From NCBI GenBank assembly GCA_944390455.1, contig CALXPU010000005.1:9252-73251 (forward strand): 64,000 bases of DNA, in the 5' to 3' direction. This document shows positions 8,349 to 43,385 of the stretch, piece after piece; the stretch's first letter is position 1, and every line of letters begins with the position of its first letter. The position numbers and the translations under genes are program-made. The DNA is from an uncultured Alphaproteobacteria bacterium (lineage in GTDB: Bacteria; Pseudomonadota; Alphaproteobacteria; RF32; CAG-239). The notes below the pieces were generated by a model. The model worked only from the letters and a program-made list of their open reading frames with translations. It searched no databases and was not told the DNA's origin.

Positions 8349-9329
8349 TTAGGTTATTTCTGTTATACCACGAATGTTTCCGTCTCTAACGATTTGTACC
8401 ACATGAAGTTTGCGGCGCATTTCTTCTATTGTTTTTTCTACATCAATATTAGGTTGAGTTCTCATGATACGTTTTACAAAAGCTTCGTAAGCAGCCGTTG
8501 AACTTTCTGCGTGGATTGTTGCTAAGCAGTTGTCGTGTCCGGATCCCATCAACTCCCAGATTGCTCCGGCATTACTCGTTGAAATTTCTCCGCCGATAAT
8601 TGCATCTGGTGTGAAACGCACAATTAAGTCAATTACCTTTGAGTAGTCCATTGTATTGGTTTGCTCTGTACGTGACAGAACAATATGTACTCTATTGGGC
8701 TGTGGTACATTTAATTCTCGAGTATCCTCTACGGTAATAACTCGCTTATGTATATCTAACAGCTTTAACAGGTTATTCAATAGCGTTGTTTTACCGGTAC
8801 CGGTACCGCCGCTTACCAATATATGGTCACCACGTCGCAAAGCCAATAATAAACGTTCATAAGCATCGTCTGGGTCTTTAATGTTCTTTAAAGGGTTTAT
8901 TTCTTTTAATTTTTTTCCTTGCTCTAGTCCATAGTCTCCAAAACCAAATGCGACATCATCGGTATGTAGACGGATTGTTATTGCAATTCCACCAGTTGCT
9001 GCATCATCCAGATCATATTCAATATTTTTTCCAGCGACCCCAGTGAAACGGTGTCCTCCAGGAATTCTCGCATAGACCACAGGAGATCCATTTATCGGAT
9101 CAAATTCTTGGTCATTTAAATTTGCAATAATATGAAGCAAATTTGTCAGATATTCTCTGGTTAATTTAGGATCTTTGTAATTAACCCATGGAAAAGCTCT
9201 TTTTCCACGCAAGCGTAGCCATATATCTCCCGGATGATTTATGGCGACTTCTTCTATATTTTCTTGTTCATACCAGTATGATAAAGGTCTTAATACCGAG
9301 CATAGAACTTCATCCTCTAGTTTTCCCAT
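8349..9329 (-). CDS. virB11: T4SS ATPase VirB11
   Basis: 326 aa. Walker A LVSGGTGTGKTTLLNNLL, Walker B-like HKRVITVEDTREL, and a His box (GSGHDNCLATIHAESS). It is convergent with engB, with only 3 nt between the two stop codons. Confidence 0.85.
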   Translation of the reverse strand: MGKLEDEVLCSVLRPLSYWYEQENIEEVAINHPGDIWLRLRGKRAFPWVNYKDPKLTREYLTNLLHIIANLNDQEFDPINGSPVVYARIPGGHRFTGVAGKNIEYDLDDAATGGIAITIRLHTDDVAFGFGDYGLEQGKKLKEINPLKNIKDPDDAYERLLLALRRGDHILVSGGTGTGKTTLLNNLLKLLDIHKRVITVEDTRELNVPQPNRVHIVLSRTEQTNTMDYSKVIDLIVRFTPDAIIGGEISTSNAGAIWELMGSGHDNCLATIHAESSTAAYEAFVKRIMRTQPNIDVEKTIEEMRRKLHVVQIVRDGNIRGITEIT

Positions 9330-9397
9330 TTATACACTCCCTTTTTGCCTCATTTATTGTAGCAAATATTCTATACTTCGTCAACACGATACATGCA

Positions 9398-12300
9398 TTA
9401 GAATAGTTCAATATCTCCAGAAATTTCTTCTTCGCTCTCCGGAGCTTCTGTTACTGAACCATCTGCAGCCGGCGGAGGAATTGCTCCTACATTTTTGCGT
9501 GGTTGCTGTTGGTTATTTTGGCTATTACCACTATCTAACAAAGGAGTGCCACCATTGTTACTCGTATTGTTTGCATTATTTGTTTGAGCTTGGTTGCCTA
9601 AGATAACCTTCTGACTGCCTTGAGAATTGTTCTTTTCTACTGTAGAGGTTGTGGTTCCACCACCGCCACCATAGAATGTCTCATTTACCAATCCTCCTTC
9701 GCCACCTCCCGGTACGGCTGTAGCTACACCGCGTTGAATATCTTTTGTGCTTCTCAACCATAAATCTTGCATCGGATAAATTATTACTCTTGTACCCGCT
9801 GGAATATACGTTACTGGCTGTATTTGAGATTTACTATCAATAATCTCTTGTAAAATTTGATCCATTTTTTCCATAAATTCTTGTCTTGCATCTGATGCGG
9901 CTTGTTGTTTTGAAGTTTCCACTTCTCCGGTACTATCTTCGTCAGCGGCCATCATATATGTAATTGCTGAAGTTACCATAGTACCAACAATCGGCAATGT
10001 GTATTTCTTCACTAACTGTTCATCAACATAACCCAATGCACCACCACCACGTCCTTGTGCATCGCCAGTTTGAGTTCTTCCCGGTGAAAGTAAAAATGCT
10101 ATACCATCTGGGCGGATAATTCTCTCCCAAGATATGTCTAACTTTACACCACCACTTGTATTATCAAATCTTGCCTCTGTATCTGTTGTTTGCAGACCGC
10201 CAATTATTCTACTACCAGCTGGAATAATTACGTTACGTCCAGAATCACCATAAATATTTCGTTCAACTATCGCTGTTACCGGAGCGGAACCTAAGGATAT
10301 TAATGAACGCGCCAGAACTGCCGGTATTGGTTTATCTCCCGTAATCATATTATCCATATTCACTCTTAATGTTGACACCGTACGTTTCATGCCCCAGTCA
10401 TCTTGCCAACCGGTATATGAAGCTGCATCATATCCTGGTTCTATTTTGGCGGCAACGAGTGTTCTTCTTCGTTCATCTTGAAGTTGTGATAATATTGCAG
10501 CTCGTCTTGGATTATACCTTCCACCAGGGCCAACACCTCCGCCAGGACCGACATTGGTTATTTCATCACCACTGCTATATGGATTTATGGTTGCTCCTGT
10601 TGCTATCTGTTTCCACCAATTTGCATTCATCCCTTTGCTATCTGCTGAGGCACGTTGTTTTTCAAAATCACCAACTTTATTTCCTTCATTATCGAATATT
10701 TCTCCTTTTTCGTTGGCGCTACCAACAACAGCACCTGATTCATCTATTACTTTATTATTACTGTATACATCTCCAATATAACGTCCTCCTGGGGTTACAG
10801 CTATTCCCACAACTTGATAATCTTCTTTAGTTTCAAGAGCGGCTTGCTCTTCCGGACTTAATGTTTCTTCTATCTGTTCTTCTGTTTTGGAAGCAACATT
10901 TTCAATTTCAGTATTTATACTATTTTCTTCTTGATTTTCGTCTTCAATCTCAGTTTCAGATGTTTTTACTTCTGATGCCTCAGGCGTTTTTTCAACAATC
11001 TTTTCCTCTTTGGGTTCCGATGGACGGCGATAGTATTGTAATTTTCCAGCTTGCCCCAATACATCTCCTGAAGGAGAAATTACTCTACCTTCTTCATCTA
11101 TTTTTCCTATTTCTATGTTTTTTATATTTACAACACTACCATCTAGGTTCAAGTGCCCTATTATTTGATTATCTTTGTTCCTTATTTCATAATCTCTTAG
11201 ACCGCGCCCTATTAGATTTTGTTTCTTATCTAAAACAAATCCTTGATAAATAGATCCTTTTATTTCTCCCATTATGCTATATACTCGACCATTCTTGGCG
11301 ATATATCCTATGGTTTTTCCTTCATTATCATATACATATAAATCATACAAAGCATAACCATTGTCGCCTTTTTTAGTTTTCACTTCTCCGGTATGGAGTA
11401 CATAACCTAAATTTTCACCATTATCTGAGACAACACTGCCATCTGGTTTTACGCGCCCTAAATAAATATTATTCGCATCAAAGGCTACCGTGTATTGGAA
11501 AGGTACACCTATGTTCTTTCCATCCTTAGAGCGGATACTGCCGTCTAAATCTATAGTAGCAATTTGTATGCCGGAGGTATCTACAACATTTCCATAAAAA
11601 TTTGTATATCCCAGTATTTTATTATCAAATCCCATTACAGACATATACGGAATTATTTGCCCGATAATTTCTTTTTGAGCATTTCTTACTTTTCCATTGC
11701 TATCTATACACCCTAAATTTTGATTATTATAATTAAGGACATTACCTGATGAATTGCTTACGCCAATTGTATCTCCCCCTTCTCCATTTACTGCACGGGG
11801 TTGTACAACATAACCTATTACTTCTTCTGTTTCATTTACGACCTGCTTATTTGCTAATATCATACCCAAATAAGCATCTTTAGATGTTCTGGCTTCACCA
11901 CTATCTGATACAATACCTATGACTTTGCAATCTGGTGAAATAACAGTCCCCATCTCTAAGGCTTTTCCATATAAAGCTCCCATGTTATCCAGAACATATC
12001 CATTTGAACTTATTTTTCCAATTATTTCCGTTCCCTTGGTTACTTGTCCCGTCAGGCTATTTGCCCCCAGATAATCGCCATTAATACTTACACTGATTGG
12101 AGCATTGCTTGCACGTCCATAATTTTGCGAAAAACGTTCTGATATTCCAACTACATTATTATCCGGTAAGATTTTTGCAAAAACTTTATTTTGTGAATTT
12201 ACCACCAAATTTCCAGAATTAACAACACCTTGCATTTCTCCTTCAAAATTTGTAATAAATTTACTTTCCACCATTTTTCCGAGTAACTTATTATTTTTAT

Positions 12301-13759
12301 CTAAGAATATTCCGTTTCCCGTAAATTTAGCTATTTCATTTAATGAAGGATTTTCGGTTTTGCCTTCGTTGGACGTAAAGGACAATGTCGTGCCATCATC
12401 TGTATAAATTCCACCTTGCTTAATATTTATACCGCTAATATCCCCATTTTCATCAAAGATATATCCATATGGTGATATTTTATAGGCTATTCCATTTGCA
12501 CTCAGGCCTGTATTTATTCCACTTATACCTAAAAACTCATTGTTATTGTTAAAGCACAAATTATCTGCCAGCGTTTTTCCTATTACTCTGCCATTATTAT
12601 CTACTGCATCATTTTGACGTATTGTACCTAAATCTACACCTTCTAGAGAAACTATTTTACCGCCAACTGCAGCATTTGCCTTTAAATTTCCTAAATAATC
12701 AAATACAGGTCCTTCTGAATTTATTATACCTATGACATTGCCTTTTTCATCAATAACTTTACCAGATGCACCGATTGTACCGATTACATTTCTTTTACTT
12801 AAAACTTTGCCATCTGCTGTAATTCTTCCTAAATATTTTCCGTCAAGCGTATTGGCTGTTGCAGCCATATTAACGGTAAATCCGATTGTATTTCCATCTT
12901 TGTTTATTACTCTATTTCCATTTACGGCACGTGCAACAATTGTTCCCTTATTTACAACTTCGCCATTATAGCTAACTACGCCGATATATTGTCCATTATT
13001 ATTAAAAGCATAGCCATTATCTACAACATGCCCTATGGCTTGACCTTCTTTATTGTACACATATCCATTTGCATGGATGTTACCAATAATATTTTTTTTC
13101 AAATCCATCACTTTTCCATCTGGGGCTATGCTTCCCAGATATTTACCTACTGATGATATTACCATTTTGGAGGTAATCAATTTTCCCAGCAATCTAATTT
13201 TATTTTCAGTTCCGGCAAGAGAATATACATAACCACTAGCTGTCACATAGCCTGTATTTTCACCTGAAAGATTGTAGAATTTTCCATCTCCTGATACGCG
13301 ACCCACTACTTGTCCTGCGTCATTGTATACAAGGTTTGGCGATACAGACGCGCCTAGAATATCGTAATTATCATTTACAACCAAACCATTTGGGAGAACT
13401 TTACCGATTAAGCTATCATTTGCAGAAGTAACAGAGCCATCGTTATTAATTTTTCCCAAAATACTGTTATTGTACGAGATAGCTATACCTTGAGGAACAA
13501 CTCCACCGATAAGATTGTTTTCATTATCGTATACAAAACCATCTGCAGTAATGTATCCTATCAGTTCATTGTTGCTGTTGATAACTGAACCGTCTGGTAT
13601 TACTTTTCCAATCAAGTCTCCATTAAAATTAAGTGCGCTAATATCCGCAGCCATTGCACGCAAACTTATGGCTACAAATAAAACAATCAATCTTATTATT
13701 TTGCTCAGTTTTCTTATGCTTTTATGCAAATCAATTCCTCCGGTTTTGCGCAACTTCAT
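9398..13759 (-). CDS. virB10: Giant VirB10/TrbI-family T4SS protein (1453 aa). It has an N-terminal transmembrane anchor, about 860 aa of a degenerate 17-residue tandem repeat, an acidic E/K-rich linker, the TrbI/VirB10 C-terminal domain, and a further 104-aa G/N/Q-rich tail.
   Basis: The C-terminal region (residues ~1085-1349) carries VirB10 hallmarks: RVNMDNMITGDKPIPAVLARSL, IPAGSRIIGG, GRGGGALGYVDEQL and IPAGTRVIIYPMQDL. A transmembrane helix (IIRLIVLFVAISL) sits near the N-terminus. The repeat consensus is x-x-D-G-x-[IV]-V-D-x-x-G-x-[IV]-I-G-x-[AV]. Confidence 0.8.
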   Translation of the reverse strand: MKLRKTGGIDLHKSIRKLSKIIRLIVLFVAISLRAMAADISALNFNGDLIGKVIPDGSVINSNNELIGYITADGFVYDNENNLIGGVVPQGIAISYNNSILGKINNDGSVTSANDSLIGKVLPNGLVVNDNYDILGASVSPNLVYNDAGQVVGRVSGDGKFYNLSGENTGYVTASGYVYSLAGTENKIRLLGKLITSKMVISSVGKYLGSIAPDGKVMDLKKNIIGNIHANGYVYNKEGQAIGHVVDNGYAFNNNGQYIGVVSYNGEVVNKGTIVARAVNGNRVINKDGNTIGFTVNMAATANTLDGKYLGRITADGKVLSKRNVIGTIGASGKVIDEKGNVIGIINSEGPVFDYLGNLKANAAVGGKIVSLEGVDLGTIRQNDAVDNNGRVIGKTLADNLCFNNNNEFLGISGINTGLSANGIAYKISPYGYIFDENGDISGINIKQGGIYTDDGTTLSFTSNEGKTENPSLNEIAKFTGNGIFLDKNNKLLGKMVESKFITNFEGEMQGVVNSGNLVVNSQNKVFAKILPDNNVVGISERFSQNYGRASNAPISVSINGDYLGANSLTGQVTKGTEIIGKISSNGYVLDNMGALYGKALEMGTVISPDCKVIGIVSDSGEARTSKDAYLGMILANKQVVNETEEVIGYVVQPRAVNGEGGDTIGVSNSSGNVLNYNNQNLGCIDSNGKVRNAQKEIIGQIIPYMSVMGFDNKILGYTNFYGNVVDTSGIQIATIDLDGSIRSKDGKNIGVPFQYTVAFDANNIYLGRVKPDGSVVSDNGENLGYVLHTGEVKTKKGDNGYALYDLYVYDNEGKTIGYIAKNGRVYSIMGEIKGSIYQGFVLDKKQNLIGRGLRDYEIRNKDNQIIGHLNLDGSVVNIKNIEIGKIDEEGRVISPSGDVLGQAGKLQYYRRPSEPKEEKIVEKTPEASEVKTSETEIEDENQEENSINTEIENVASKTEEQIEETLSPEEQAALETKEDYQVVGIAVTPGGRYIGDVYSNNKVIDESGAVVGSANEKGEIFDNEGNKVGDFEKQRASADSKGMNANWWKQIATGATINPYSSGDEITNVGPGGGVGPGGRYNPRRAAILSQLQDERRRTLVAAKIEPGYDAASYTGWQDDWGMKRTVSTLRVNMDNMITGDKPIPAVLARSLISLGSAPVTAIVERNIYGDSGRNVIIPAGSRIIGGLQTTDTEARFDNTSGGVKLDISWERIIRPDGIAFLLSPGRTQTGDAQGRGGGALGYVDEQLVKKYTLPIVGTMVTSAITYMMAADEDSTGEVETSKQQAASDARQEFMEKMDQILQEIIDSKSQIQPVTYIPAGTRVIIYPMQDLWLRSTKDIQRGVATAVPGGGEGGLVNETFYGGGGGTTTSTVEKNNSQGSQKVILGNQAQTNNANNTSNNGGTPLLDSGNSQNNQQQPRKNVGAIPPPAADGSVTEAPESEEEISGDIELF

Positions 13760-16700
13760 CTAATACATATCCGGAAACCTGATTTCGGATATTTACATAT
13801 GAGCCATTACTCTTCAAATATCCGATTTTCCCGTTTGTTAGACTATATATTGTTCCGTTTGAGGCTAGTCTTCCTAAAAACTTTCCATCATTCCCTAATA
13901 TATTAGCACCAATTTTATAGCTATGTCCCAATATTTTTCCATTGTTATCTACAACTAAATTTGATGATATAATTTTTCCGATTACAGATCTTTCTTTATT
14001 CAGCACTTTTCCTTCTGCATTTACAAAGCCGACAACTTGATCTTCCTCATTGATTACAATATCATCTTCAACAAGTTCACCTATTAAAAAGCCCTTATCA
14101 TTAACGGCTTGTCCAGAATTTAAAATATGGCCTATTTTAGTATTTTCCGTAGAAATGATGCTACCATCTGCAACAACTTGTCCTATTATTTTTCCTGAAT
14201 AATTGAGAACAACACCTCTTTTTACAACATTATAGTTTTTATTTGATGTTCCGCCAGGAAGGATTGTGGTGACAATGTTATCTTCATCGTCAATAATATC
14301 ACCAAGTGCATTTAAGTATCCTCTTGTCTTTCCTTGAATATCTATAACAAAGTCTTCTTTTATAACTTCACCTATTATTTGTTTGTTTTCATCCAGAATA
14401 TGCCCTTCTGAACCGACATTACCACTGACGTTTCCATCTACATCTATTACTTTACCACTTTTGCTCACATAACCTAAATATGAACCGTCATAGCCAATAC
14501 CAACGCCTGTTTTTACCAAACCGCCTTTGTATTCTCCTTGTTTATCAAACATTCTCCCTTTGCCGTCAATATACCCTAATTCGGTTCCCAAAACGTCGAT
14601 TACTTTTCCGGCGTCATTAGCTATGCCAATATAATTTCCGTTAAAGTCAACCACGGTGCCTTTATTAATTATTTTTCCGGCTTTCTTAGAATAGAATGAG
14701 TTGCCTTCGTATACAAATTTATCAACAGCTATTCCTTTTTGATTATAGACATAACCATCCGCAAATAAATGCCCTATCGTATTTCCATTTGCATCTACGA
14801 CAATGTTCTTTTCTGGCAGTAACACGCCTTTTACTTCCAGTTTAGGATTTACTAAGTATTTATTTAGCAAGACCTTAGTATTTGGAATGACGGTTTGATT
14901 ATCATATTTGAATGTTGATAAATTATTTATGAAATCGCCATTTACACCGAAAGCCTGAGTTTTATCCATAACCTGACCTATGATGAAGCCATCTTTATTC
15001 AATATTTCTCCATCTAAGTTTGCGCATCCGATTGCCTGTAAACCATTTTTGACAGTACCGTCTTGATTTAGGGGGCCCATCATCTCCCCGCTATAATATA
15101 ATCCATAGCTCGGTTCAAAGACTTTTCCTATTAGTTTTCCGTCTTGGTTTAATACCCCACCATCTGGATTTACACATCCAACATAGCCACCTTCGTCATT
15201 GCGGACAAAGCCGTCATATCCAGCTTTACCAATGATATTACATTTTTCATCTCTTACGATGCCTACTTTTGCTATATCGCCAACATAGTTACCATCTTTG
15301 TCAACAATTGTGCGGTCAAACATCATTCTATATTCTGTTTCTTTTCCATCTTTTTTTACTTTAGCATCTCTGTCTACATATCCCAGATGTTGACAGCCCC
15401 ATCCTACAGCCATTCCTCCAATCACCGTTTTGCCTATTATTTTTTCTCCTTCTATGGATTTTATTAGTGAATTTGGCAAAATTTTACCGACGATTTCTTC
15501 TTTGTTATTAATAACTTCACCTTTGTTATTAATTATTCCCAGACTATAACCGGCAGGAGAAATTGCTATCATGTCTTTTTTAACAACAGTTCCTATTCTT
15601 ACGCCTCGAGAACTGATAACATTACCATTCTCATCAATGTAACCTATAACGATACCATTTGCGTTATAAACTTTTCCGTCCTCTCCGATATACCCTATCA
15701 CATTTCCATTTTCATCTACGGCTAAATTTGAGTAATCGCCGACTTGACCTACAATTTTGCCATTTTCATCTACGGTAAAATCAACCATTCCTCCTACTTT
15801 ACCGATTATGTTTCCTTTACTATCCTTTACACTACCATCTTCTTGAACAGTACCTATTACATTGCCATTTAAATCTCTGGCAATTCCGTTTTCATCAACA
15901 TAACCGATAACATTTCCAGCTTCATCTAATATAGCTTTTCTGGAAATAACTTTTAAGTTTCCGTCTCCATTTTCAGCCAATCGGCCAATAACTTCGCCAT
16001 TGCTTCCATAAACATTTCCATCTTCAGCAACAAATCCTATGACTTTTCCATTATTGCCAATGACTTTTCCTTTGTCGTCCACATAGCCAATAACATTACC
16101 ATCTTTATCTAATACTACTTTGGCAAAATCACCGGCCTTTCCGATTATATTACCATTTATATCGTTAATACTTCCATCTTCCCCTAAATATCCGAGAAGT
16201 TTTCCATCAAAATCGCGGACTGTGCCATCTTCATCCACATATCCTATAACATTGCCATCTTTATCATAGGCTAATTGACGATTTATGTCTGCTTTGCCGA
16301 GAACTTCTCCGGTTACGCCGATGATATTTCCATTTTCATCCATAAAACCAATTAGTTCACCATTTTCTCCATAAACTTTTCCGTCGTCTTCAACATAACC
16401 GATAACATTACCATCTTTATCCAATGCTAATGTCTTTGTATCTCCGGTTTTACCAATTTCTCTTCCATAAGCGTCTATAATGCGCCCATCTTTAGTGGCT
16501 TTTCCCAGCAAATTACCCTTAAAATCGTAGACATTTCCGTCTTTATCAACGTAACCGATTACTTTGCCATTTTTATCGTATGCCAATGTTCCCTTTTTAT
16601 CTACATTACCGATGACTTCATTAGTGTTATTTAAAATATTACCATTTTCATCAACATAACCGATAACATTGCCTTTGAAATCTTTCACTGTTCCGTCTTT

Positions 16701-19700
16701 ATCTACAAATCCTATAACTTTTCCATTTTTATCGTAAGCTAAATTTTTTGCTCCGCCAACTTTACCAATAATTTTACCATTTTTATCAAGAACATTACCT
16801 TTTTCATCAACTTTTCCGACAATGTTACCGTTTTCATCAATTACATTGCCGTTTTCATCAACATAACCGATAATATTGCCGTCTTTATCATATGCCAGCT
16901 TTACACTTTTGCAGGCTGTACAAATAACTTCACCTACAGCTTTTACTTCATTATCTTTGGTTACATAACCAATTAATTTATTATCTGAACTAAAAGCAAA
17001 ATTATTTTCTTTCATATAGCCGATAACATTATTTCCATTGTCTCTAAGCGTTTTCTTATCTGCGTCTAACTTGCCAATTACATTTTCTTTGGCACCCAAA
17101 ACATCGCCTTTTATATCGACAATACCAATAATTTTATCTTCGTCGCCTTTAACATAGTTTTGCGCATCAATATAGCCAATAACATTTCCTTCTGATTTTT
17201 GGACTACATTTAATAATTCCCCTGTTGTACCAATCAGTAGTCCTTTATTATCAACCACATCTCCATTTTTGTTAGAACCTAAAGTTTTGCCACTAAAGTT
17301 TTTCACAACGTTGTTCTTATCTAAATAACCGATTACAAGCCCTTGCTTATTTTTTATAATTTTTTTTCTAACGCAAGTACGACCAATAATTTTGTCACCA
17401 GCCTTAATTACGTTTCCATTTTTATCTATAAAACCGACTAATTTGCCATTTTCATCTACTACACGACCATTTTCTACATAACCGATAATGTTGCCGTTTT
17501 TATCTGTTGCTACTTGTCTATATTCTCCGGCTTTTCCGATGACTCTTCCGTTTTTATCCAGAATACTTCCGTCTTCAGCCATTCTTCCTATCAGATTTCC
17601 TTTAAAATCTTTAACTGTTCCATCTGGTGTAACATAGCCGATGACTTTACCATTTTTATCATATGCTAATCTTTTGAAGTTCCCTGCAACACCTAACTTT
17701 TCACCGCTTGAAGCAATTATATTTCCGTTTTTATCAACGACACCTATAATTTTTCCATCACAATTTATGACGCGTTTTTTCTCGTCTATATAGCCAATAA
17801 ACACACCTTGATTGTTGAAGGCAAGCTCTTTTATGCCACCGACTTTTCCAATTATTTTGCCATCTTTATCAACGACATTTCCTGACGAATCTTTTTTACC
17901 AATAACGCTTCCGCCACAACCTTTAACAGTACCATCCGTATCAACATAACCAATAAATTTACCGTTTTTATCGTATGCAATTTCTCTTGAAGTTCCGGCT
18001 TTTCCGATGATTTTTCCATTTGTTCCTATTATTTGCCCTTTGTCATCTACATAACCTAAAAGAGCGCCATTTTTACCGATGACACGACCTTTATCATCAA
18101 CAATACCAATAACATTACCCTTTTTATCAAAGGCAACCGTTGCATAGTTACCAGCCTTTCCGATTTTTTGGCCATTTTTACCAATAATTTCCCCTTTATC
18201 GTTTACTTTTCCGATAACATTGCCTTCAAAATCAATAACATTTCCGTCATCATCTATATAACCTATAGGCTTTCCATCTTTTCCTAAGGCTATTCTTTTT
18301 TTGTTGCCATTTGTATCAGCCTGTTTGGTACTTATGATATTCCCGTTTTTATCAACATTACCAATATGTTTGCCATTGTGATCAAAAACACGACCTTGCT
18401 CATCTACATATCCAATGACTTTTCCATTTTTATCCAAAGCTAATTTGGCATACGCTCCAGCCTTTCCGATGATTTTTCCGTTTTTATCTACAATATTACC
18501 ATCTTTATCTACTTTTCCGATAACATTTCCCTTAAAATCTTTAACCGTGCCATCTTTGTCAACGTAACCGATAACATTGCCATCTTTATCATACGCCAAT
18601 CTTCTGCTTACGCCAACTTTTCCAATAACATTTGATTTATTTTTATCTTGATCAAATTTAACAACTTTTCCGTTTTCATCTATATAACCTATAGCCTTAC
18701 CATCTTTATCATAGACAATCTTGCGACTTTCTCCATTTGTACCTATTTTCTCTTTAGCTATTTTGTATACGTTACCGTTTTCATCAACATATCCAACAAC
18801 ATTTCCGTCTTGGTCAACAACACTGTTATCTGGCATAACAACGCCTAAAACATTGCCATTTTCGTCAACAACAATATTTCCTGATGATGTCACCTTTCCG
18901 ATAACATTGCCATTTTCATCGACAACCTCTCCGTTTTCATTTAATCGTCCAATGATTTTTTTAGGGTCATTAATATCTACAACTGTTCCATCTGGTAATG
19001 CACGACCAATAATTTTGCCATTTTTATCATATACAAATCCAGCCTCAACGGCTTTTCCAATGATTTCACCGTTGCTATTTACTATCGTTCCATCAGGCAG
19101 AGCCTTGCCAATAACTTCTCCTTGTAAATCAACAACAGTTCCGTCTGTTTTAACATAGCCAATAATATTGCCATCTTTATCGTATGCCAATTTCATATTT
19201 TGGGCAACGCCGATGATATTACCATCCGAATCAACAATCAATCCGTCTTCATTAACTTTACCGATAATGTTACCGTCTTTGTCATGAACATTTCCGGCTT
19301 CATCAATGTAACCTATAATTTCACCATTAGGCCCTATAGCTAGACGATGAGCCCCGATCCCCCCATCATCACCAATGGAGCAACCACTTCCAGCACTACA
19401 ATTTTGTTGGTTGTCTTCTGGGTATACTGCACTGCCTCTAATGCTTACTTCCTCAGATTTGGCACTTGATTTATCTAATCTGGTTTCATACCATATTATT
19501 TTGAAATTATTTTGAACATTCCCCGGTAAGTGTGGCGCCCAAGTTATTAAAACATTGCACGTTTCATCACCTCGTAAATCACGGTTTCTACATTTATCTC
19601 TAAAATCAAAACCATCTTCCGTTTCTTCTACAAGCTCAACCCTTTCTATATGTATGCTTTCACTACCATCCGTTCCTATCGTTAAAACGCTTTGATTTTG

Positions 19701-20009
19701 AACATCAACCCCCAGAACAAATTTGTTCATATTAATTTGTGCTGGCGTTACTTTTATTGGCTTGCTCTTTCCTTCACCTGTTGTTGCTTCGGTATCTATA
19801 AATATTGGACCTGCATCTGCACCTATTTCAGGTAAGATATTCTGATTTTCCACAAAATCAGGCGCATCCTCTTCTGGGTTATAAACTTCTGTATCAGAGG
19901 ATATTACAAGCAAACCAAACAAAAAGAAACAGAATGCGATAATTCCTATCGTAAAAATTATCTTTCGAGTTTTTCTCTCATATTCTTCAAACCGAGTATT
20001 TTCACTCAT
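13731..20009 (-). CDS. 2092-aa bitopic repeat protein between virB9 and virB10. It has an N-terminal transmembrane segment and is then made almost entirely of tandem 17-residue 'DxDGxVIGYVDENGNV'-type repeats. It resembles the N-terminal half of the adjacent VirB10 but has no TrbI domain.
   Basis: A single hydrophobic helix (IIFTIGIIAFCFFLFGLLVI) lies near the N-terminus. Period-17 repeats such as LPDGTVVDENGNVIGKA and DKDGNVIGYVDENGNVI run for well over 100 units. The repeats at residues ~230-1330 are very regular; the more C-terminal ones are degenerate. The gene overlaps the virB10 start by 29 nt and the virB9 stop by 4 nt. Confidence 0.7.
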   Translation of the reverse strand: MSENTRFEEYERKTRKIIFTIGIIAFCFFLFGLLVISSDTEVYNPEEDAPDFVENQNILPEIGADAGPIFIDTEATTGEGKSKPIKVTPAQINMNKFVLGVDVQNQSVLTIGTDGSESIHIERVELVEETEDGFDFRDKCRNRDLRGDETCNVLITWAPHLPGNVQNNFKIIWYETRLDKSSAKSEEVSIRGSAVYPEDNQQNCSAGSGCSIGDDGGIGAHRLAIGPNGEIIGYIDEAGNVHDKDGNIIGKVNEDGLIVDSDGNIIGVAQNMKLAYDKDGNIIGYVKTDGTVVDLQGEVIGKALPDGTIVNSNGEIIGKAVEAGFVYDKNGKIIGRALPDGTVVDINDPKKIIGRLNENGEVVDENGNVIGKVTSSGNIVVDENGNVLGVVMPDNSVVDQDGNVVGYVDENGNVYKIAKEKIGTNGESRKIVYDKDGKAIGYIDENGKVVKFDQDKNKSNVIGKVGVSRRLAYDKDGNVIGYVDKDGTVKDFKGNVIGKVDKDGNIVDKNGKIIGKAGAYAKLALDKNGKVIGYVDEQGRVFDHNGKHIGNVDKNGNIISTKQADTNGNKKRIALGKDGKPIGYIDDDGNVIDFEGNVIGKVNDKGEIIGKNGQKIGKAGNYATVAFDKKGNVIGIVDDKGRVIGKNGALLGYVDDKGQIIGTNGKIIGKAGTSREIAYDKNGKFIGYVDTDGTVKGCGGSVIGKKDSSGNVVDKDGKIIGKVGGIKELAFNNQGVFIGYIDEKKRVINCDGKIIGVVDKNGNIIASSGEKLGVAGNFKRLAYDKNGKVIGYVTPDGTVKDFKGNLIGRMAEDGSILDKNGRVIGKAGEYRQVATDKNGNIIGYVENGRVVDENGKLVGFIDKNGNVIKAGDKIIGRTCVRKKIIKNKQGLVIGYLDKNNVVKNFSGKTLGSNKNGDVVDNKGLLIGTTGELLNVVQKSEGNVIGYIDAQNYVKGDEDKIIGIVDIKGDVLGAKENVIGKLDADKKTLRDNGNNVIGYMKENNFAFSSDNKLIGYVTKDNEVKAVGEVICTACKSVKLAYDKDGNIIGYVDENGNVIDENGNIVGKVDEKGNVLDKNGKIIGKVGGAKNLAYDKNGKVIGFVDKDGTVKDFKGNVIGYVDENGNILNNTNEVIGNVDKKGTLAYDKNGKVIGYVDKDGNVYDFKGNLLGKATKDGRIIDAYGREIGKTGDTKTLALDKDGNVIGYVEDDGKVYGENGELIGFMDENGNIIGVTGEVLGKADINRQLAYDKDGNVIGYVDEDGTVRDFDGKLLGYLGEDGSINDINGNIIGKAGDFAKVVLDKDGNVIGYVDDKGKVIGNNGKVIGFVAEDGNVYGSNGEVIGRLAENGDGNLKVISRKAILDEAGNVIGYVDENGIARDLNGNVIGTVQEDGSVKDSKGNIIGKVGGMVDFTVDENGKIVGQVGDYSNLAVDENGNVIGYIGEDGKVYNANGIVIGYIDENGNVISSRGVRIGTVVKKDMIAISPAGYSLGIINNKGEVINNKEEIVGKILPNSLIKSIEGEKIIGKTVIGGMAVGWGCQHLGYVDRDAKVKKDGKETEYRMMFDRTIVDKDGNYVGDIAKVGIVRDEKCNIIGKAGYDGFVRNDEGGYVGCVNPDGGVLNQDGKLIGKVFEPSYGLYYSGEMMGPLNQDGTVKNGLQAIGCANLDGEILNKDGFIIGQVMDKTQAFGVNGDFINNLSTFKYDNQTVIPNTKVLLNKYLVNPKLEVKGVLLPEKNIVVDANGNTIGHLFADGYVYNQKGIAVDKFVYEGNSFYSKKAGKIINKGTVVDFNGNYIGIANDAGKVIDVLGTELGYIDGKGRMFDKQGEYKGGLVKTGVGIGYDGSYLGYVSKSGKVIDVDGNVSGNVGSEGHILDENKQIIGEVIKEDFVIDIQGKTRGYLNALGDIIDDEDNIVTTILPGGTSNKNYNVVKRGVVLNYSGKIIGQVVADGSIISTENTKIGHILNSGQAVNDKGFLIGELVEDDIVINEEDQVVGFVNAEGKVLNKERSVIGKIISSNLVVDNNGKILGHSYKIGANILGNDGKFLGRLASNGTIYSLTNGKIGYLKSNGSYVNIRNQVSGYVLDEVAQNRRN

Positions 20010-21973
20010 TGTATTCTGACCACACTACAAAATATACCATTACGCCCTAGTTGACTGCAAATATTATCTCCTTCTTCCAGAGATTTAACCGGTCCAACAC
20101 GCAAATGAAAAACTTCTTTTCCTTGTCCGTCTGCCGGTGTATCTACGGAATAGAATGGTTGATATTTGCCTAGTGTTGCTGAATAATTCTTTGAAATATC
20201 ATTCCATAATTTCTCTAAATTATTTACATCTTTATCCGTTCCTAACTCTATAGAAATATTACTTTCATCGGTATTTGCGAATACTTTTCCTTCTCTAAAT
20301 TCTTTGAGCAAAGCTTCTGTTTCAGCTGAAACAACGGAATTATGCTTTTCTAAATCATTATCTTTAGGCGTAATCAACACCGGACTAGAGTTATTACTTG
20401 AGTTACCGATTTTTGACGCACCATTAGGTATCTGTATATTTTGTTGTGTATCTTTTTGATACGTAACAGATGCATTTGGCTTATCATTATATTGAGGCGT
20501 TACAAATTCAGCACCATTTGCTTTTATATCATACTGCCCCGTTAGATTTTCTTGCTTTTGTTCAACTTCTGGAGCTGCAACAAAAGTTTTTGCTTTTGGT
20601 AAGGTATCTAATAATGTTGTTTCCTCACCAGCGGCTTGTCCTTGAGAAGTTCCTTTGGAAGCGGCATTATTTGTTTCTGCAACTACAGGTTTAACTTGAG
20701 CACCATTTGTTGTACCTTTCTTTCCACTAATCATATCCTCATAACTCAATCCATTAGAATCTGTTGATGAAGAGTTGTCTTTAGTTTCGGCTGGCCCAAA
20801 GAATGAGCTTATGCCAAAGAAAGAATCTTTTTGATTATTGTTATTCTCCGCCTTCTTTCCATAGACGTCCTCATAGTCTTCAGAATTTTGTTCTTCATTT
20901 TCCGTAGTCTTTTGATAACGTTTTGCTTGTAAATCCCATTCATTTGTTTTTGCATAAACAGTATTTTCCAAACCATCCGAATCTGCTCGTCTTAGTTTTA
21001 AGCATACAATTCTTTTACCGCTACGAAGAACCATATCGCCCATACCTTCTACGATTATCAAACGGTTGTTTGGACCTGCCGTTCTAAAACCTACCGGAGT
21101 TTCTGAGCGCTCTACGATTAAGGTTACTATCGGTCTTTGGTTAGATGTAAGAGCTTTATCTCCTAAATCAATATATGTAAAAATATTATCTCTCCAGACG
21201 CGCTCCGGTGCTATTACTATATCATCAGGATTTGGAACATATACCTCAATATCAAAACGAAACTTTGTTGGATCTACCGGTATTTTTTCAATCCAGTCTT
21301 CCTTTTGTAAATCTCTTGTAAAGGTCGCATCTGCACTGCTGCCATTTTGGCCATAACTATTTGCATTTATATGTCCACCGCTATTATTGCTACCAATTAT
21401 TGCTGAACCATTTGCGTTTTGACGTCTTTTAACAACTTCTATATCAATAATAGCGTTGGTTATTCTATCTGTATTAACGGTTTCACTTTGAACATAAAAA
21501 ACATATTTATTACCCGAACGTCCGAAAACAATCATATTGGTATCCACACCAACAAATTGAGAAGAATCCGGATAAACCATTAAGCTTGAAGGGCCTTGAA
21601 TTTCTGCATTAAAAGATTGCCCATCACCGATATATACATTCTCTATAACTTCCCAATTTGGGAAATTAATCAATGTATACATTCCTTCTCTAACTCTTAC
21701 TGGTAAAACCAACTCAGGCGTCCAATAGTATTTTGTATATCCAGGACGCGTCTGTCCCTCTCCCATATGCTGCAAAGGATCTTTCCACGCGCTTTGCATC
21801 ATTCCAAGAGATCCTACACCCCCTAAATAATTCAAATTTGTGGCAGCGTAGTTACCTTGACTTTGGTCTGCATTCTGATCAAGATTATCTTTTGTTACTT
21901 GTGCTTGTACGGCAGGAACCAAAACACCTGCTGATATTAATATTACGGATAAAATGTTTGTAATTTTCATCAT
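20006..21973 (-). CDS. virB9: T4SS outer-membrane core protein VirB9, extended to 655 aa. It has a signal peptide, a VirB9 domain of about 300 aa, a N/Q/S/T-rich low-complexity spacer of about 280 aa, and a C-terminal SPOR-like domain.
   Basis: Signal peptide MMKITNILSVILISAGVLVPAVQAQ. The gene sits between virB8 and virB10. The C-terminal ~75 aa (ISIELGTDKDVNNLEKLWNDISKNY...GKEVFHLRVGPVKSLEEGDNICSQLGRNGIFCSVV) fit the two-lobed SPOR pattern (xVQlGaF...lyRVrvGPf..a...c..L...g..c.vv). Confidence 0.7.
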   Translation of the reverse strand: MMKITNILSVILISAGVLVPAVQAQVTKDNLDQNADQSQGNYAATNLNYLGGVGSLGMMQSAWKDPLQHMGEGQTRPGYTKYYWTPELVLPVRVREGMYTLINFPNWEVIENVYIGDGQSFNAEIQGPSSLMVYPDSSQFVGVDTNMIVFGRSGNKYVFYVQSETVNTDRITNAIIDIEVVKRRQNANGSAIIGSNNSGGHINANSYGQNGSSADATFTRDLQKEDWIEKIPVDPTKFRFDIEVYVPNPDDIVIAPERVWRDNIFTYIDLGDKALTSNQRPIVTLIVERSETPVGFRTAGPNNRLIIVEGMGDMVLRSGKRIVCLKLRRADSDGLENTVYAKTNEWDLQAKRYQKTTENEEQNSEDYEDVYGKKAENNNNQKDSFFGISSFFGPAETKDNSSSTDSNGLSYEDMISGKKGTTNGAQVKPVVAETNNAASKGTSQGQAAGEETTLLDTLPKAKTFVAAPEVEQKQENLTGQYDIKANGAEFVTPQYNDKPNASVTYQKDTQQNIQIPNGASKIGNSSNNSSPVLITPKDNDLEKHNSVVSAETEALLKEFREGKVFANTDESNISIELGTDKDVNNLEKLWNDISKNYSATLGKYQPFYSVDTPADGQGKEVFHLRVGPVKSLEEGDNICSQLGRNGIFCSVVRIQ

Positions 21974-21992
21974 ATAAATATCCTACACTCTA

Positions 21993-22751
21993 TTAATTTG
22001 TTTTCCGTTCAACCTGCTTATAATCAAGCACAGTAAATCCTAATGGATTTTTTAATCTTTCGCCAAAAGTTACCCTTTTTGCTCTGTATTGTATTTTTAT
22101 TGAAGCCAACCATACACTTAATCTAGGTGTTTCATATTCTGGCATCATATCTTCTACTCTGAACTCCACTTGCCACCAAGTTTCGCCGCGCTCACCACCA
22201 ACTTCTGTTACAGATGATATTTTAATATTTCTGGTTATATTGTGATTACGAATTAAATCTATTGCCTTATCTGCAAAAGTTTCTCTAAACTGGCTATATA
22301 CCCCAGGAGAAGACATTTCTTGTATTGTACTTCCAGCACCCCAACGTTGTTCCATCTCTTCCACATTATTTACAAATGTATTTCGTAGGAGGACGTACTC
22401 TCTTACAAAGATTTCTGTCAGATATTTATATTCATATATATTCTTAACAGGATGGATTGTATATATCTGGTCTTTTTTTTCTGCAAAACTAAACAAATAT
22501 GGCTCTATGCGATATAATGGCATAATAGCAAACACTACGTATGTCAGTATTAAATTGCAACACAGGCTAACGGCAAAAATGATAGCAAAAGCACGCGCGG
22601 TCCACAAGTACCTTTTTTCTGTTGCATTTTCCACAACCACATCTGCACTTCCTTTTTTTTGAGGACGCGCCATTCTGGGACGAGGCTTTTCTCCCCCTTG
22701 TCCCTCCAATAGTAGTTTTTTAGTATTTTCAGAAGATACTTGTTCGACCAT
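21993..22751 (-). CDS. virB8: T4SS protein VirB8 (paralog 2)
   Basis: 252 aa bitopic protein with a transmembrane segment (AFAIIFAVSLCCNLILTYVVFAI) and the C-terminal VirB8 motif NPLGFTVLDYK. Confidence 0.7.
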   Translation of the reverse strand: MVEQVSSENTKKLLLEGQGGEKPRPRMARPQKKGSADVVVENATEKRYLWTARAFAIIFAVSLCCNLILTYVVFAIMPLYRIEPYLFSFAEKKDQIYTIHPVKNIYEYKYLTEIFVREYVLLRNTFVNNVEEMEQRWGAGSTIQEMSSPGVYSQFRETFADKAIDLIRNHNITRNIKISSVTEVGGERGETWWQVEFRVEDMMPEYETPRLSVWLASIKIQYRAKRVTFGERLKNPLGFTVLDYKQVERKTN

Positions 22752-22762
22752 CTCTTTCCACC

Positions 22763-22951
22763 TTAGCTGATAGCCTTAAACCAATCCGGTAAAGTTTTGG
22801 GCAACTCTACTTCAATGCAAGCACATGGTGATAATTTTAATTCGTAGACATCTTTACCAATACCTACAGGCTCTGGCTCATAGTAGCTACCTACTAAGTT
22901 ACAAGCGGCTAATATTAATACTGCAGAACCAATAATTATTGCTTTATACAT
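22763..22951 (-). CDS. Small lipoprotein in the VirB7 position (candidate VirB7)
   Basis: 62 aa with a lipobox (ILAAC), located between the two virB8 paralogs upstream of virB9. The assignment rests on position, size and lipobox only. Confidence 0.35.
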   Translation of the reverse strand: MYKAIIIGSAVLILAACNLVGSYYEPEPVGIGKDVYELKLSPCACIEVELPKTLPDWFKAIS

Positions 22952-23095
22952 GATTAACCCTCTAAATAATTTTTCATCTATTTTATACTTAAAACTTTTA
23001 TTTTTAAAAGTCTAACGAGAAAATAAATTGCCTCGACTTATCAACAGGCTAAATCGCTTTATTGGTACAGTAGCATATGAATACTTAAAATTTTT

Positions 23096-23854
23096 TTAAA
23101 TCTCTATTTCACTCTGAAAATAACTATATACAACAAATCCCAGAGGATTTAATAAGCGTCGATAGGCTGTTCTTCTATTTGGATCTACATAGCCTCTGAT
23201 ATTTGCGGTCCAGAACCTTTCTTCAATAATCGGCTCAACACTGGCGCGACGGCTTAAACGATTTTGTTTGAACGTAAAATCATAGGTTTTAAACTCTATT
23301 TTCCATGTGTTGCTATTTTCACCACCGGTTCTTTCTACAGATAGTATTTCTACTGAGCGACTACTTTCTTTATCCATCATTTCTTCTTTTAATTTTGGAA
23401 AAACTTTTTCAAATTCTTTATATACCGGATAGGTTGATAAATATGAAACAAGACCGCCCCACAACCATCTATTATTCATCTCTTTTTCATCTTTAATATA
23501 GGTATTACGCAATTCTACGTATTGTTTCATAAAATTTATCATCATCTTTTCACGAGAATCCATCCAACGATCTACGCGCTCTCTTTTTACCAAAGATTGA
23601 GAATCTGATAATTCTACAAATAGTTGAGGGTCTATGACTATTTCTGGAGCCAACTTTAGTATGGATAATGTGGTGCAAACACCGTATAACAGCGACACTG
23701 TTGCCAGCATCGCCATTAAACGGCTTATCCACTTATAATAAATCAATTTAGCTCTTTTTACTTCAACGACATCTTCTGTTATAAATGCCGGTGCTTCTTT
23801 AGGCTTTCCTTTATCTGCTATTTGCAGTATTTTTTGATTTATTAAATTTACCAT
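23096..23854 (-). CDS. virB8: T4SS protein VirB8 (paralog 1)
   Basis: 252 aa with a transmembrane segment (LMAMLATVSLLYGVCTTLSIL) and C-terminal NPLGFVVYSYFQ. It is the same length as paralog 2 and similar in overall sequence. Confidence 0.7.
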   Translation of the reverse strand: MVNLINQKILQIADKGKPKEAPAFITEDVVEVKRAKLIYYKWISRLMAMLATVSLLYGVCTTLSILKLAPEIVIDPQLFVELSDSQSLVKRERVDRWMDSREKMMINFMKQYVELRNTYIKDEKEMNNRWLWGGLVSYLSTYPVYKEFEKVFPKLKEEMMDKESSRSVEILSVERTGGENSNTWKIEFKTYDFTFKQNRLSRRASVEPIIEERFWTANIRGYVDPNRRTAYRRLLNPLGFVVYSYFQSEIEI

Positions 23855-23874: not shown

Positions 23875-26800
23875 TTAATATATTGGTGAATAAGGAACAG
23901 CTTGGCTTTGGTTATCCATAGAAGTCAAACCTTCTTCTGTTGCATCCAGAGAAGCTTTTCGGTTTGCTTTTGCTTCCTCAACGGCTTCTTTGACCTCTTC
24001 CGGTGTTGCATTTGGTTGGATGTAGGAAAGTTCGTCCGCATCAACTTCAAAAGAATCTAAGTAATCTTGAATATTTTGGATACGTTCTGTCACTTTCTCA
24101 TTACCTTCTATAGACTTAACCTCATTAAATCCTTCATATTCTCCGTCTTCATCACTATATCCATTTAATGCCTTCTTAATAGCTTCATCTTTCAAGTCAT
24201 TAAGTTTGCAGAAGATGGTGTCATAGTATGAACCAGATCCAGATTGTGCACATTGTACATCATATGCATCATCTGCTGAATTTTTCGCTAATCCTCCATT
24301 TTCCATTATATATGTTGCGCAAACACTATCTGCGTCATCTCCACTTTCGCCATTGACGGTTTCACCATAATTATGAAGTTGTCCGCATAATGTTTGTAGA
24401 GAATCTATAACGTCTTCTTTATTCTTTTCTAGAGATGTTAAAGCTGTGTGTTCTGCGTTTACAGCCTCTAAGAAAGAACCTATAAGATTTCTCTTAAATA
24501 CAGCTGTGTCTGCTCGTTGACGTTCAATACTATTTTCCTGATTGTTATCATCCAGCAGGTAGTTATAGATATTCTTTAAGATTGGGCGATATTGTAAATC
24601 ACCATTCAAGAATTGACCTAATTCGCTGTATTTTGTATACATCGGCTCAGAGATGCTGCCCAGACTACCTTGTAATGCTTTGGATTTGTTATCATCTTTT
24701 GCATCATGGTCAGCTAATAAATGACGAACTCCTCCCTTATAGCTTTCAACTTCTTGGCATTCCTCAACTTTAGCAATACCGCTTGGTAGTCCAGAACGTT
24801 GCTTAAATTGAATATCTCTAACATTATCACCTCCGGCAATATCAATGTATTTGCCTCCTAATTTGCATGGATATACACCGGCTCTGTCAATAATGGTTCT
24901 GTAATGCCATTCTGCAGCACCATCAATTCCTTCATTGTTTAGATATTTTTTCAACTTATCTAAACCATAGGAGCGTTCAACAAATGTATGTTGATACTTT
25001 TCTGGTCCAGGTCTTAAGTTCGGCGTTGCTAGTAAATATCTCCATACTTCAGGAATATATTCAACAGCGTCTTCTGTTCCTTTGTATTTCAAATCAACAA
25101 GAGCTGACAGTGATGGTTTACCATCTTGTTGGGGCACATCATCATAGTCTAAAGCGCTAAAGTAAAATACTTCTCTTACCGGAGCCAGGTTCAACAAAGG
25201 TTTTCTTGGCGCGCGATAGTCACGTCCGTCATTTTCATCAAAGACGAAGTTTGTATTATCACGTCCGAATTGAGCAAAAGTATTTGTTCCTTCATATCCG
25301 CCTCTTGCTGGTAAGGCTGCAAAGTAATCATCATCTGTTGCTACATTATCCGGCATACCAAAGACTTCCTGTAAATTAATTTCTGCTGCATCTAAAATAC
25401 TCTGATTTTCAGCTTTCTTTAAGTCTTCAAGTAACTGGTAGTGTCTTGCAGTTACAGCTTGGGTACCTTCAGCAGCTCCGTCTGCGGCATAATTATCGTG
25501 TTTGTAGATTTCTGGATTTGCTTCAGTGCCTTCCTTACCGGTTACACCCCACTCTTCCATAACTTCTGTTACTTCTTCAACGGCTGCATCAATTTCATCT
25601 TTAACAATTTTATCAGCTTTATTGATATATGCGTTACTGCCTTCAGCTAAATCAGCTTTTGCTTCCTCTACGGATTTCTCTTTTAAGGCTTTTGCCAGCG
25701 TTGTTGGTGTATATAGCCCATCTGCTACACCATATGGTGCCAAGCAGCCTCCTTCTACAACAAATTTTCTGACTACTTTTCCTTCGTTACTTAGTTTATT
25801 TGCCGCGTAGCTTAGCCATGAACCATCTGCAAACCATCTGTCTTCAATACCTTTTTTGACTAATTCCGGTAATTCTCCGGCAACGGCACTTTCGCTATTC
25901 GCCGAGCCATTGCCATACATTACTCGGGCTATTGTCCAACTCAGATTGTCATATTTATATTCATGGCTGTATCCATCTCGACATATAACTCCCAAAGGAC
26001 CATATCCTTTGCACCATTCACGATTTTCGCTAACCATTCTATCTGGTTCGGTACCATCTTCTTTGGTTTCCAATTTATCTTCAAATTCTTTATTTGCAGC
26101 TTCTAATTCAGCTTGTCCTTCTTCTGACTTCCTTATATAGTCTTCTGCAAATTTTGTTGCCGTATTCTCTAGTTGTTCATTCAATGAATCAATTTTATCT
26201 TGTAAAACGTTCATCATTGACTGTGTACTGTCTATTTCTGTATTTTGAGTGGTGATGACTTTGTCTAAATCCTCTATCTTATCGAATTTATCATCATCAC
26301 GTGTGTTTTCATCATACGGCTCTTCTTTATTTGCTGTATTTCTATATTGTGAACATACTTCATATGTATCATCATTTTCCGGTGCTCCATAGCAAATGTA
26401 TGCTAACTCTTCTTTAAGAGCAGGAATTTGGCCAATTCTCTGTGCTAGTGTTGGATTTTCAAACTTATCTAAATCCTCTCCCGCACCGATGGTTAATGAT
26501 TCAATTTCCTTTTGTAGGCTCTTGGGTTTCGGGCTTCTTTCATCTAAACGTGCTTGCAATTCTTCAACACGATTTTCCAACTCTTCTATTTGTGAAGTAA
26601 TTGCTGATACTCTCTTTAATGAGCGTTGGCGCTGTTGAATAGCATCATTTTTTATATCTGTTGCATCACTTAATTTCTGACCATAAGAGCTTCTTTGGGC
26701 AATCGTTGCTTGCAGCTGTGATTTAAGATCTTTTATATCACTTTCGTACTTTTGAATGAATGCCTTTAATTCTGCTTCAATCTTCTTACGCAATTCCAGA

Positions 26801-37520: not shown

Positions 37521-37598
37521 GGCTTAACCCCTCTGTTGTCATATATACATATTAAGCCTGAATATCTTAAAATTTATTAAATTTATATTTTTTTATTT

Positions 37599-37955: not shown

Positions 37956-37966
37956 CTCATCATCTC

Positions 37967-38290: not shown

Positions 38291-38402
38291 CTCAAAATCT
38301 CCCCTATAATTATTTGTATTATATCACAAATTCATAAAAATATCTAGAAAAAAATGCGCAGCATCACTTACGATATCATGTTGTTTTTACTGTGTTTATT
38401 TG

Positions 38403-38535: not shown

Positions 38536-38555
38536 TTTTCTTTATTTGTTGGTTA

Positions 38556-43376: not shown

Positions 43377-43385
43377 GAGTTTGCA

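Follow-up and report, generated by a model that had tools for sequence, protein, structure and literature searches.

We examined a 64-kb stretch of DNA (the window: 64,000 nucleotides (nt) of contig CALXPU010000005.1 in assembly GCA_944390455.1, from an uncultured Alphaproteobacteria bacterium of GTDB lineage RF32; CAG-239) which carries a type IV secretion system (T4SS) operon where two VirB8 genes, here virB8A and virB8B, enclose a small lipoprotein gene and lie upstream of virB9. We consider it likely that this group forms the outer-membrane/periplasmic core module of a chromosomal P-type (VirB/ComB-like) T4SS, with a VirB7 lipoprotein and a retained VirB8A duplicate. As judged by sequence comparison, the duplication most likely arose independently of the one in the Rickettsiales rvh system, in a T4SS lineage with ComB7/RvhB7-type anchoring of VirB7 to VirB9. 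An initial annotation of the locus had given its coordinates, the 252-, 62- and 252-amino acid (aa) lengths, an ILAAC lipobox, NPLGF C-terminal ends and a position upstream of virB9, all of which were confirmed from the open reading frame (ORF) list.

Both paralogues are true VirB8 proteins. When compared with the VirB8 hidden Markov model PF04335, as the initial annotation had proposed, both pass, at 49 bits for VirB8A (E 8.7e-13) and 67.8 bits for VirB8B (E 1.6e-18) vs. a curated gathering cut-off of 23.2 bits, and the matches span profile positions ~17–209 of 213. BLASTP aligns the two proteins at 30% identity (E 3e-25; hhalign profile–profile E 9e-37), and each contains a single hydrophobic segment, as expected of a bitopic topology: VirB8A consists of a cytoplasmic N-terminus, one transmembrane helix (~48–66) and a periplasmic NTF2-like domain with NPLGF at 236–240, and VirB8B has its helix at ~58–76, NPLGF at 235–239 and an invariant cytoplasmic motif, N-x-x-EKRYLWTARAFA. 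VirB8A keeps a cytoplasmic Y-x-W-x-x-R and, compared with VirB8B, has an extra ~12-residue loop (195–208) between two strands; both end in LNPLGF followed by a short tail. AlphaFold models (mean predicted local distance difference test, pLDDT, 78 for VirB8A and 76 for VirB8B) consist of a long N-terminal helix and a helix/β-sheet domain. With Foldseek, the VirB8A model matched R388 TrwG and the Bartonella, Agrobacterium and Brucella VirB8 structures at target-normalised template-modelling (TM) scores of 0.70–0.77, and the VirB8B model matched solved VirB8 structures at up to 0.81; the structural matches of both periplasmic domains include R388 TrwG in the arches/inner-membrane complex and pKM101 TraE. 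A phmmer search of the PDB with VirB8B had Bartonella VirB8 as its best match (4kz1, E 2.6e-6). NP[LIV]GF was found in the A and B copies of all 24 genomes checked (the window and 23 further loci); the motif line for one B copy (L031_B) is an earlier chance match, its true C-terminal NPLGF being visible in the alignment (P0094), and the B copy of a further lineage, L089, has NPVGF.

By its position, its motif and its partner cysteine, the lipoprotein is the predicted VirB7 of this T4SS. Its lipobox, L-A-A-C, ends in Cys17 (codon 22901–22903), and the mature peptide of 46 aa contains P-V-G-I-G-K, the core K39-L-S-P-C43-A-C45 (22817–22837), which provides two more cysteines, and a C-terminal LPDWF. 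An exhaustive phmmer search of 1.84 billion representatives found 56 clusters, so that the family counts at least 56 representatives, and at least 879 proteins in all; in a profile search of a 5.8-billion-protein set with the lipoprotein alignment, the best 120 matches all belonged to the same clade. C17, K39, C43 and C45 are invariant and P28, G30, G32, S41 and P42 near-invariant in the family alignment, and from these columns we derive the family motif P-V-G-I-G ... K-x-S-P-C-x-C. Across 83 related loci, every lipoprotein has the lipobox cysteine, and the mature part hardly changes, in contrast to a drifting signal peptide (dN 0.04 vs. 0.21).

The initial annotation had placed the lipoprotein in the VirB7 slot, and its homologues support this, as they lie directly 5' of virB8–virB9 in five independent systems with a single VirB8 (on plasmids of Erythrobacter aureus, Microbulbifer and Sphingosinicella and on two other contigs); the order there is a gene in the VirB6 position, the lipoprotein gene, and then virB8–virB9(–virB10–virB11–virD4). 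The same slot is held by the annotated VirB7/TraN in pVir, pTiC58 and R46. In a distant relative, L087 (12427–13827 of JAUHZY010000002.1, GCA_030425825.1), we observed VirB4, the lipoprotein, VirB8 and CagX/VirB9, followed directly by a secretin-family gene in place of VirB10.

The motif points to the same assignment. The annotated VirB7 of Campylobacter jejuni pVir (MKILKISILTITIIFFSACATTNKEIPKKSPCACNYDVIKIS) has a core, KKSPCAC, identical to the family core, and of 1966 six-frame ORFs searched with the family profile, it ranked first (E 0.003), a match carried by an 8-residue core. A [KI]KSP motif with a Cys is common to Rickettsia VirB7 (RvhB7) and ComB7 (Gillespie 2009, PMC2653234), and the lipoprotein falls in this KSPC subgroup, K, S, P and both C being invariant or near-invariant; for the likeness to Helicobacter ComB7, the sequence compared was pVir VirB7. 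The comparison with RvhB7 suggested by the initial annotation is borne out by the motif (YEIKSPCV in RvhB7, YELKLSPCA here) but not by the profile, which gave R. typhi RvhB7 a non-significant E of 0.65. Nor does the lipoprotein have the P[ILV]NK motif of the TraN/VirB7 subgroup; in place of PxNK, 11 residues past the lipid Cys, stands a near-invariant P-[VI]-G-[IV]-G-[KR], and the Pfam TraN model PF20898 matched one of 27 family members (E 0.028).

We then considered VirB9, in which the initial annotation had suggested looking for a cysteine co-evolving with those of the lipoprotein. The protein has a signal peptide, a CagX/VirB9 domain at 80–325 (PF03524, E 2.2e-14), a low-complexity linker and a C-terminal SPOR domain at 581–653 (E 3.6e-4). 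A candidate partner is Cys324 (codon 21002–21004), which is invariant in all 85 VirB9s of lipoprotein-bearing systems and shares its alignment column with A. tumefaciens C262, pVir C344 and R. typhi VirB9a C241; C262 is the disulfide partner of VirB7 in A. tumefaciens, according to Gillespie 2009 citing earlier experiments (PMC2653234). R46 served as a negative control: its TraO is cysteine-free, with Gly at the Cys324 column, and its TraN has no Cys past the lipobox. In blastp searches, VirB9 was closest to Sphingomonadales plasmid systems (38–39% identity), then to pVir (E 2e-8) and then to R. typhi VirB9a (E 5e-6), and its match to Agrobacterium VirB9 was not significant; phmmer with VirB9 against the PDB returned nothing relevant. 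Within the peptidoglycan-binding SPOR domain, a pair of cysteines, C639/C649, is kept in 82 of the 85 VirB9s, those of the Erythrobacter and Sphingosinicella plasmids included.

Small size, lipidation and location inside a T4SS operon are also what an entry-exclusion or accessory protein (TrbK/EexN-like) would display, and one distant family member matches the EexN model below threshold (E 0.045, 13.7 bits vs. a cut-off of 33). We nevertheless regard it as very improbable that the lipoprotein is of this kind rather than a structural VirB7. Neither the window protein nor its family has a significant TrbK or EexN match in Pfam/NCBIfam, so the TrbK-type similarity that the initial annotation had named as the alternative did not appear; EexN of R46 sits elsewhere, between virB5 and virB6, and it is TraN (VirB7) that stands directly before virB8, as the lipoprotein does here, past the VirB6 position. 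Moreover, the family occurs in chromosomal systems without a relaxase (the window, L087), its mature peptide barely differs between species, and it is matched by an invariant VirB9 Cys.

Taken as a VirB7, the lipoprotein would be exported, lipidated at Cys17 and bound by the C-terminal β-sandwich of VirB9, where one cysteine of KxSPCxC would most likely form a disulfide bond with VirB9 Cys324, like VirB7 Cys24–VirB9 Cys262 in Agrobacterium; more speculatively, the second may bridge neighbouring VirB7 copies, as in Agrobacterium VirB7 homodimers. VirB8B would be the orthologue of the single VirB8 of related systems; bitopic in the inner membrane, it would form the arches with its periplasmic domains and meet VirB4 with its N-terminal tail. 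VirB8A would be an old tandem duplicate, older than the radiation of the gut clade, which is intact under purifying selection and evolves faster. As both copies keep the NPxG dimerisation motif, they probably co-assemble or take distinct places in one machine and do not form a separate one; to a specialised, retained VirB8A that co-assembles with VirB8B we give about an even chance.

Judged by sequence conservation, VirB8B is the better preserved of the two, and VirB8A evolves faster. Columns conserved at 95% or more number 33 in VirB8A vs. 74 in VirB8B, and in the deeper subclade identity to the window copy is 36–40% for VirB8A vs. 45–50% for VirB8B. The three closest single-copy VirB8s of related systems (L087, Erythrobacter, Sphingosinicella) are 27–33% identical to B vs. 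19–24% to A, and all five such proteins favour the B profile over the A profile by 14–46 bits; because they are nearer to B, we regard B as canonical and A as derived. The fewer conserved columns, lower identity and lower Pfam score of VirB8A could instead mean that it is redundant or decaying and lacks a separate role, but this is largely refuted and we consider it hardly credible: VirB8A is unbroken wherever the contig extends far enough, retains NPxGF, the transmembrane helix and Y-x-W-x-x-R, and has a confidently predicted VirB8 fold. Among close relatives, dN/dS is ~0.04 for VirB8A, equal to that of VirB8B and of the lipoprotein (approximate values, as dS is ~1.5 and near saturation), and we conclude from it that the three genes are under strong purifying selection and are not decaying. 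The VirB8A of L089, which has the same four-gene order, seems split, and we considered it as a pseudogene; this was rejected, as the break is a run of N, that is, a scaffold gap.

In neighbour-joining (NJ) trees with capped distances, the A copies form one clade (81–91% bootstrap) and the B copies another (87–88%), and their internal topologies mirror each other. Since each clade is monophyletic with mirrored topology, the A/B duplication appears to be older than the radiation of the gut group. The order VirB8A–lipoprotein–VirB8B–VirB9 was found by tblastn in 83 of 83 related loci, wherever the contig reaches. VirB8B has 853 homologues at E ≤ 0.001, the few named ones being metagenome-assembled genomes (MAGs) of uncultured Alphaproteobacteria; our scan, with one genome per species, returned 252 relatives, of which 80 loci were kept, all from MAGs of human, mouse, chicken and ruminant gut. 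Labels among the relatives include 'Acetobacter sp. 46_36', 'Azospirillum sp. 51_20', Candidatus Scatocola (placed by NCBI in Rhodospirillales incertae sedis) and, once, 'uncultured Rickettsiales' (L010). We found nothing in the literature on the T4SS of RF32-type gut Alphaproteobacteria.

The initial annotation had implied a kinship with the Rickettsiales, and the likeness in layout is real. According to the literature, rvh typically has a pair of VirB8 genes around virB7, the Rickettsia order being virB9a<-virB8a followed by virB7->virB8b->virB9b on the other strand; both rvh islet C (rvhB9-II, rvhB8-II, rvhB7, rvhB8-I, rvhB9-I and further genes) and the window place two VirB8s around a KSPC-type VirB7, beside a VirB9 with a Cys predicted to bond VirB7. 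In both systems, one VirB8 is conserved and the other diverged, RvhB8-I being the conserved and RvhB8-II the diverged one; the rvh paralogues are, however, ≤19% identical, and RvhB8-II has lost NPxG (PMC4676284), whereas the window paralogues are 30% identical and both carry NPLGF. These parallels could mean that the duplication is homologous to rvhB8-I/rvhB8-II and that the locus is an rvh-type T4SS, or a free-living sister of it with the ancestral co-directional order, and the 'uncultured Rickettsiales' label of L010 fits such a descent. Multiple VirB2 copies, as in this operon, also recall the Anaplasmataceae.

We nonetheless judge a shared duplication to be improbable, the NJ method and the deep divergence leaving it a small chance. 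For the comparison with RICKETTSIALES, sequences of R. typhi and R. africae, taken from PMC2653234 (supplementary file 3), were added to the NJ tree; A paired with RvhB8-II in 0 of 300 bootstraps, and B with RvhB8-I likewise in 0 of 300. Identity between A and B is 27.5% in this comparison vs. 17–19% for either against either Rickettsia paralogue, and RvhB8-II scores 30.9 bits on the B profile vs. 11.6 on the A profile. In Rickettsia, virB8a and virB9a lie on the opposite strand and VirB9 is duplicated, whereas here all genes are co-directional and VirB9 is single and, as reported above, nearer to the Sphingomonadales plasmid proteins than to R. typhi VirB9a. More generally, rvh systems are marked by duplicated VirB4/VirB9, a multiplied large VirB6 and scattered islets, and the 64-kb window shows a single VirB4 and a single VirB9 in one contiguous operon, and no VirB6 that we could recognise. 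The implied kinship is thus not supported; with no pairing with RvhB8-I/II, and with gene orientation and VirB9 copy number differing, the duplication is most likely convergent. The resemblance to rvh is one of architecture, and shared descent is not demonstrated.

Other known systems share parts of the arrangement. In the ComB-type system of C. jejuni pVir, as in the window, a small lipoprotein with the KKSPCAC core stands directly before virB8–virB9, and VirB9 carries the corresponding Cys; the pVir VirB7 is, however, only 42 aa long and lacks both the P-V-G-I-G-K segment and LPDWF, there is one VirB8, and the pVir VirB8 and VirB9 are ~20% identical to those of the window. A. tumefaciens is like the window in its order virB7–virB8–virB9, in a lipoprotein with a second Cys and in the equivalence of VirB9 C262 with C324, but similarity between its VirB7 and the mature lipoprotein is not detectable (profile E 3.8), and the NCBIfam VirB7 model NF010433, which recognises A. 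tumefaciens VirB7 at E 2.5e-38, does not match the window lipoprotein. The closest annotated relatives that we found are the MobA/MobL-associated T4SSs of Sphingomonadales plasmids (Erythrobacter aureus NZ_CP031358, Sphingosinicella NZ_CP035502), in which a member of the lipoprotein family precedes virB8 and VirB9 carries both the Cys and the SPOR Cys pair; they differ in having a single VirB8, a relaxase and VirD4 and in lacking giant β-flower proteins, and their lipoprotein is annotated as 'hypothetical protein' or left unannotated.

The remaining operon genes abut or overlap, with the exception of the spacer ahead of the lipoprotein gene, which is ~100–150 nt in most loci. It contains two motifs, TGTTGATAAGT (23036–23046) and TTAGACTTTTAAAA (23002–23015), both invariant or nearly so across both subclades while the neighbouring proteins are ~47% identical; each motif has one exact copy in the window. 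The spacer had no Rfam match, no terminator was found in it, and a sigma-70 scan gave a weak match at 23008–22980 that was not above chance. Speculatively, it may be an internal promoter/operator for virB7–virB8B–virB9 and onward to virB11. Elsewhere in the window, adjacent copies of the two motifs with one and two mismatches occur within an addA-like coding region (62063–62087, plus strand), probably by chance.

Several observations weigh against our reading of the locus as a core module with a VirB7 and a retained VirB8 duplicate. No polytopic VirB6 or VirD4 was recognised within the window. For the lipoprotein, Pfam/NCBIfam searches with it and 26 relatives gave generic lipid-attachment matches and no curated family; its mature part has no sequence similarity to the solved VirB7s TrwH and TraN, a PDB search with the family profile having matched nothing beyond the signal peptides of TrwH and DotD, and the pVir match depends on the short core mentioned above. 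There are two non-lipid cysteines in the lipoprotein but a single VirB9 Cys outside the SPOR domain, and the disulfide between Cys324 and C43 or C45 is a prediction from alignment, to which we give somewhat better than even credence. For the duplicate, dS is near saturation, the NJ trees were built on sequences 17–30% identical, and the A+B clade has just 21–27% bootstrap, so that A may be sister to B or may fall outside B plus the single-copy relatives.

This last point bears on whether VirB8A is a local duplicate at all. It might have come from another T4SS, merged into the resident operon together with the upstream secreted-protein genes, as the NJ tree puts A outside B and the single-copy VirB8s of L087, Erythrobacter and Sphingosinicella, and the conserved, regulatory-looking spacer divides virB8A from virB7–virB8B–virB9. 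We think this unlikely: of the VirB8s compared, A is most similar to the B copies (27.5% mean identity) and then to their single-copy relative L087 (24%), the rest being at 16–22%; the locus has no other duplicated core component; and the branching of A can be explained by its faster rate (a long-branch effect). The mirrored A and B topologies imply, in any case, that such a fusion would be older than the whole clade.

The features of the operon are collected in Table 1. All lie in one long minus-strand T4SS operon which comprises, in order, three VirB2s, a VirB3-like protein, VirB4, five signal-peptide proteins, the VirB8A–lipoprotein–VirB8B–VirB9 group, a β-flower protein, VirB10 and VirB11.

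Table 1. Features of the T4SS operon, with positions in the window and the basis or character of each assignment
Feature	Position	Strand	Description
virB8A	23096-23854	minus	252 aa; upstream, faster-evolving VirB8 paralogue
VirB7-type lipoprotein gene (predicted)	22763-22951	minus	62 aa, starts MYKAIIIGSAVLILAAC...
virB8B	21993-22751	minus	252 aa; conserved, canonical VirB8
virB9	20006-21973	minus	655 aa; CagX/VirB9 + SPOR
Non-coding spacer between virB8A and lipoprotein gene	22952-23095	minus	144 nt
Downstream operon part	8349-20009	minus	Pfam and NCBIfam
β-flower repeat protein	13731-20009	minus	2092 aa; between virB9 and virB10
VirB10	9398-13759	minus	1453 aa; ~1100-aa β-flower extension before TrbI domain
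VirB11	8349-9329	minus	Pfam/NCBIfam
Upstream operon part	23875-38933	minus	Pfam, hydropathy, N-terminal sequences
VirB4	34793-37240	minus	Pfam

Several companions of the core genes were noted along the way. The β-flower ORF between virB9 and virB10 has an N-terminal transmembrane helix and ~24 β-flower/DUF3659 repeats, and it and the 1453-aa VirB10 have counterparts of 2197 and 1457 aa in relatives; the best NCBIfam model for the window VirB10 is ComB10 (E 9.8e-33), under that model's cut-off. Upstream, at 37599–38933 (minus strand), stand three tandem VirB2/TrbC pilin paralogues, the middle one being an ORF within 37956–38555 (PF04956, E 5.9e-8) that is shorter than the 110-aa limit of the ORF listing, and a 93-aa VirB3-like ORF within 37241–37598 has no Pfam match. 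Between VirB4 and virB8A, at 23875–34713 (minus strand), follow five successive signal-peptide proteins of 387, 727, 232, 458 and 1793 aa without a Pfam family, and the mature N-termini of several of them are alike (AxAF(I)WPVID...). Like the polytopic VirB6 and VirD4, a relaxase was not recognised anywhere in the window. Chromosomal housekeeping genes flank the operon, with dnaN, recF, gpsA, yidC and engB to one side and addAB and a type IVb pilus cluster to the other; the pilus-like cluster (40679–49677, plus strand), divergent from the T4SS operon, encodes a TcpQ-like protein, a secretin, PilO, a T2SSE ATPase, T2SSF and a bundlin-like pilin. The GC content is ~36%, and we take the host to be a low-GC gut alphaproteobacterium.

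The components are all those of a well-known machine, and the practical importance of the finding is modest; its companions, the giant β-flower proteins, the VirB9–SPOR fusion and the triple VirB2, add to its interest. A 2015 structural study of VirB8 regarded divergent VirB8 paralogues within one T4SS as unknown outside the Rickettsiales (PMC4676284), and because of this, another case, apparently convergent and very widespread, has moderate interest. The pairing of VirB8 genes around virB7 is fixed in 80 species-representative genomes (80 of 252 matching stretches), and their hosts are host-associated and probably extracellular. For annotation, the 'hypothetical' lipoprotein of hundreds of metagenomic T4SS loci would be the missing VirB7, and both VirB8 copies, being structurally canonical, would offer a comparative handle on paralogous VirB8s in the arches and the inner-membrane complex. 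A broader proposal, possible but in our view rather doubtful, is that this gut and rumen clade of Alphaproteobacteria independently evolved a heteromeric two-VirB8 T4SS, perhaps tied to an enlargement of the machine (the operon includes the 1453-aa VirB10 and repeat proteins of 2092 and 1793 aa), and that its lipoproteins represent a widespread, unannotated KxSPCxC class of VirB7 disulfide-locked to VirB9. If true, the clade would provide a second and more tractable natural experiment on the need for two VirB8s, one in which both copies keep the NPxG interface.

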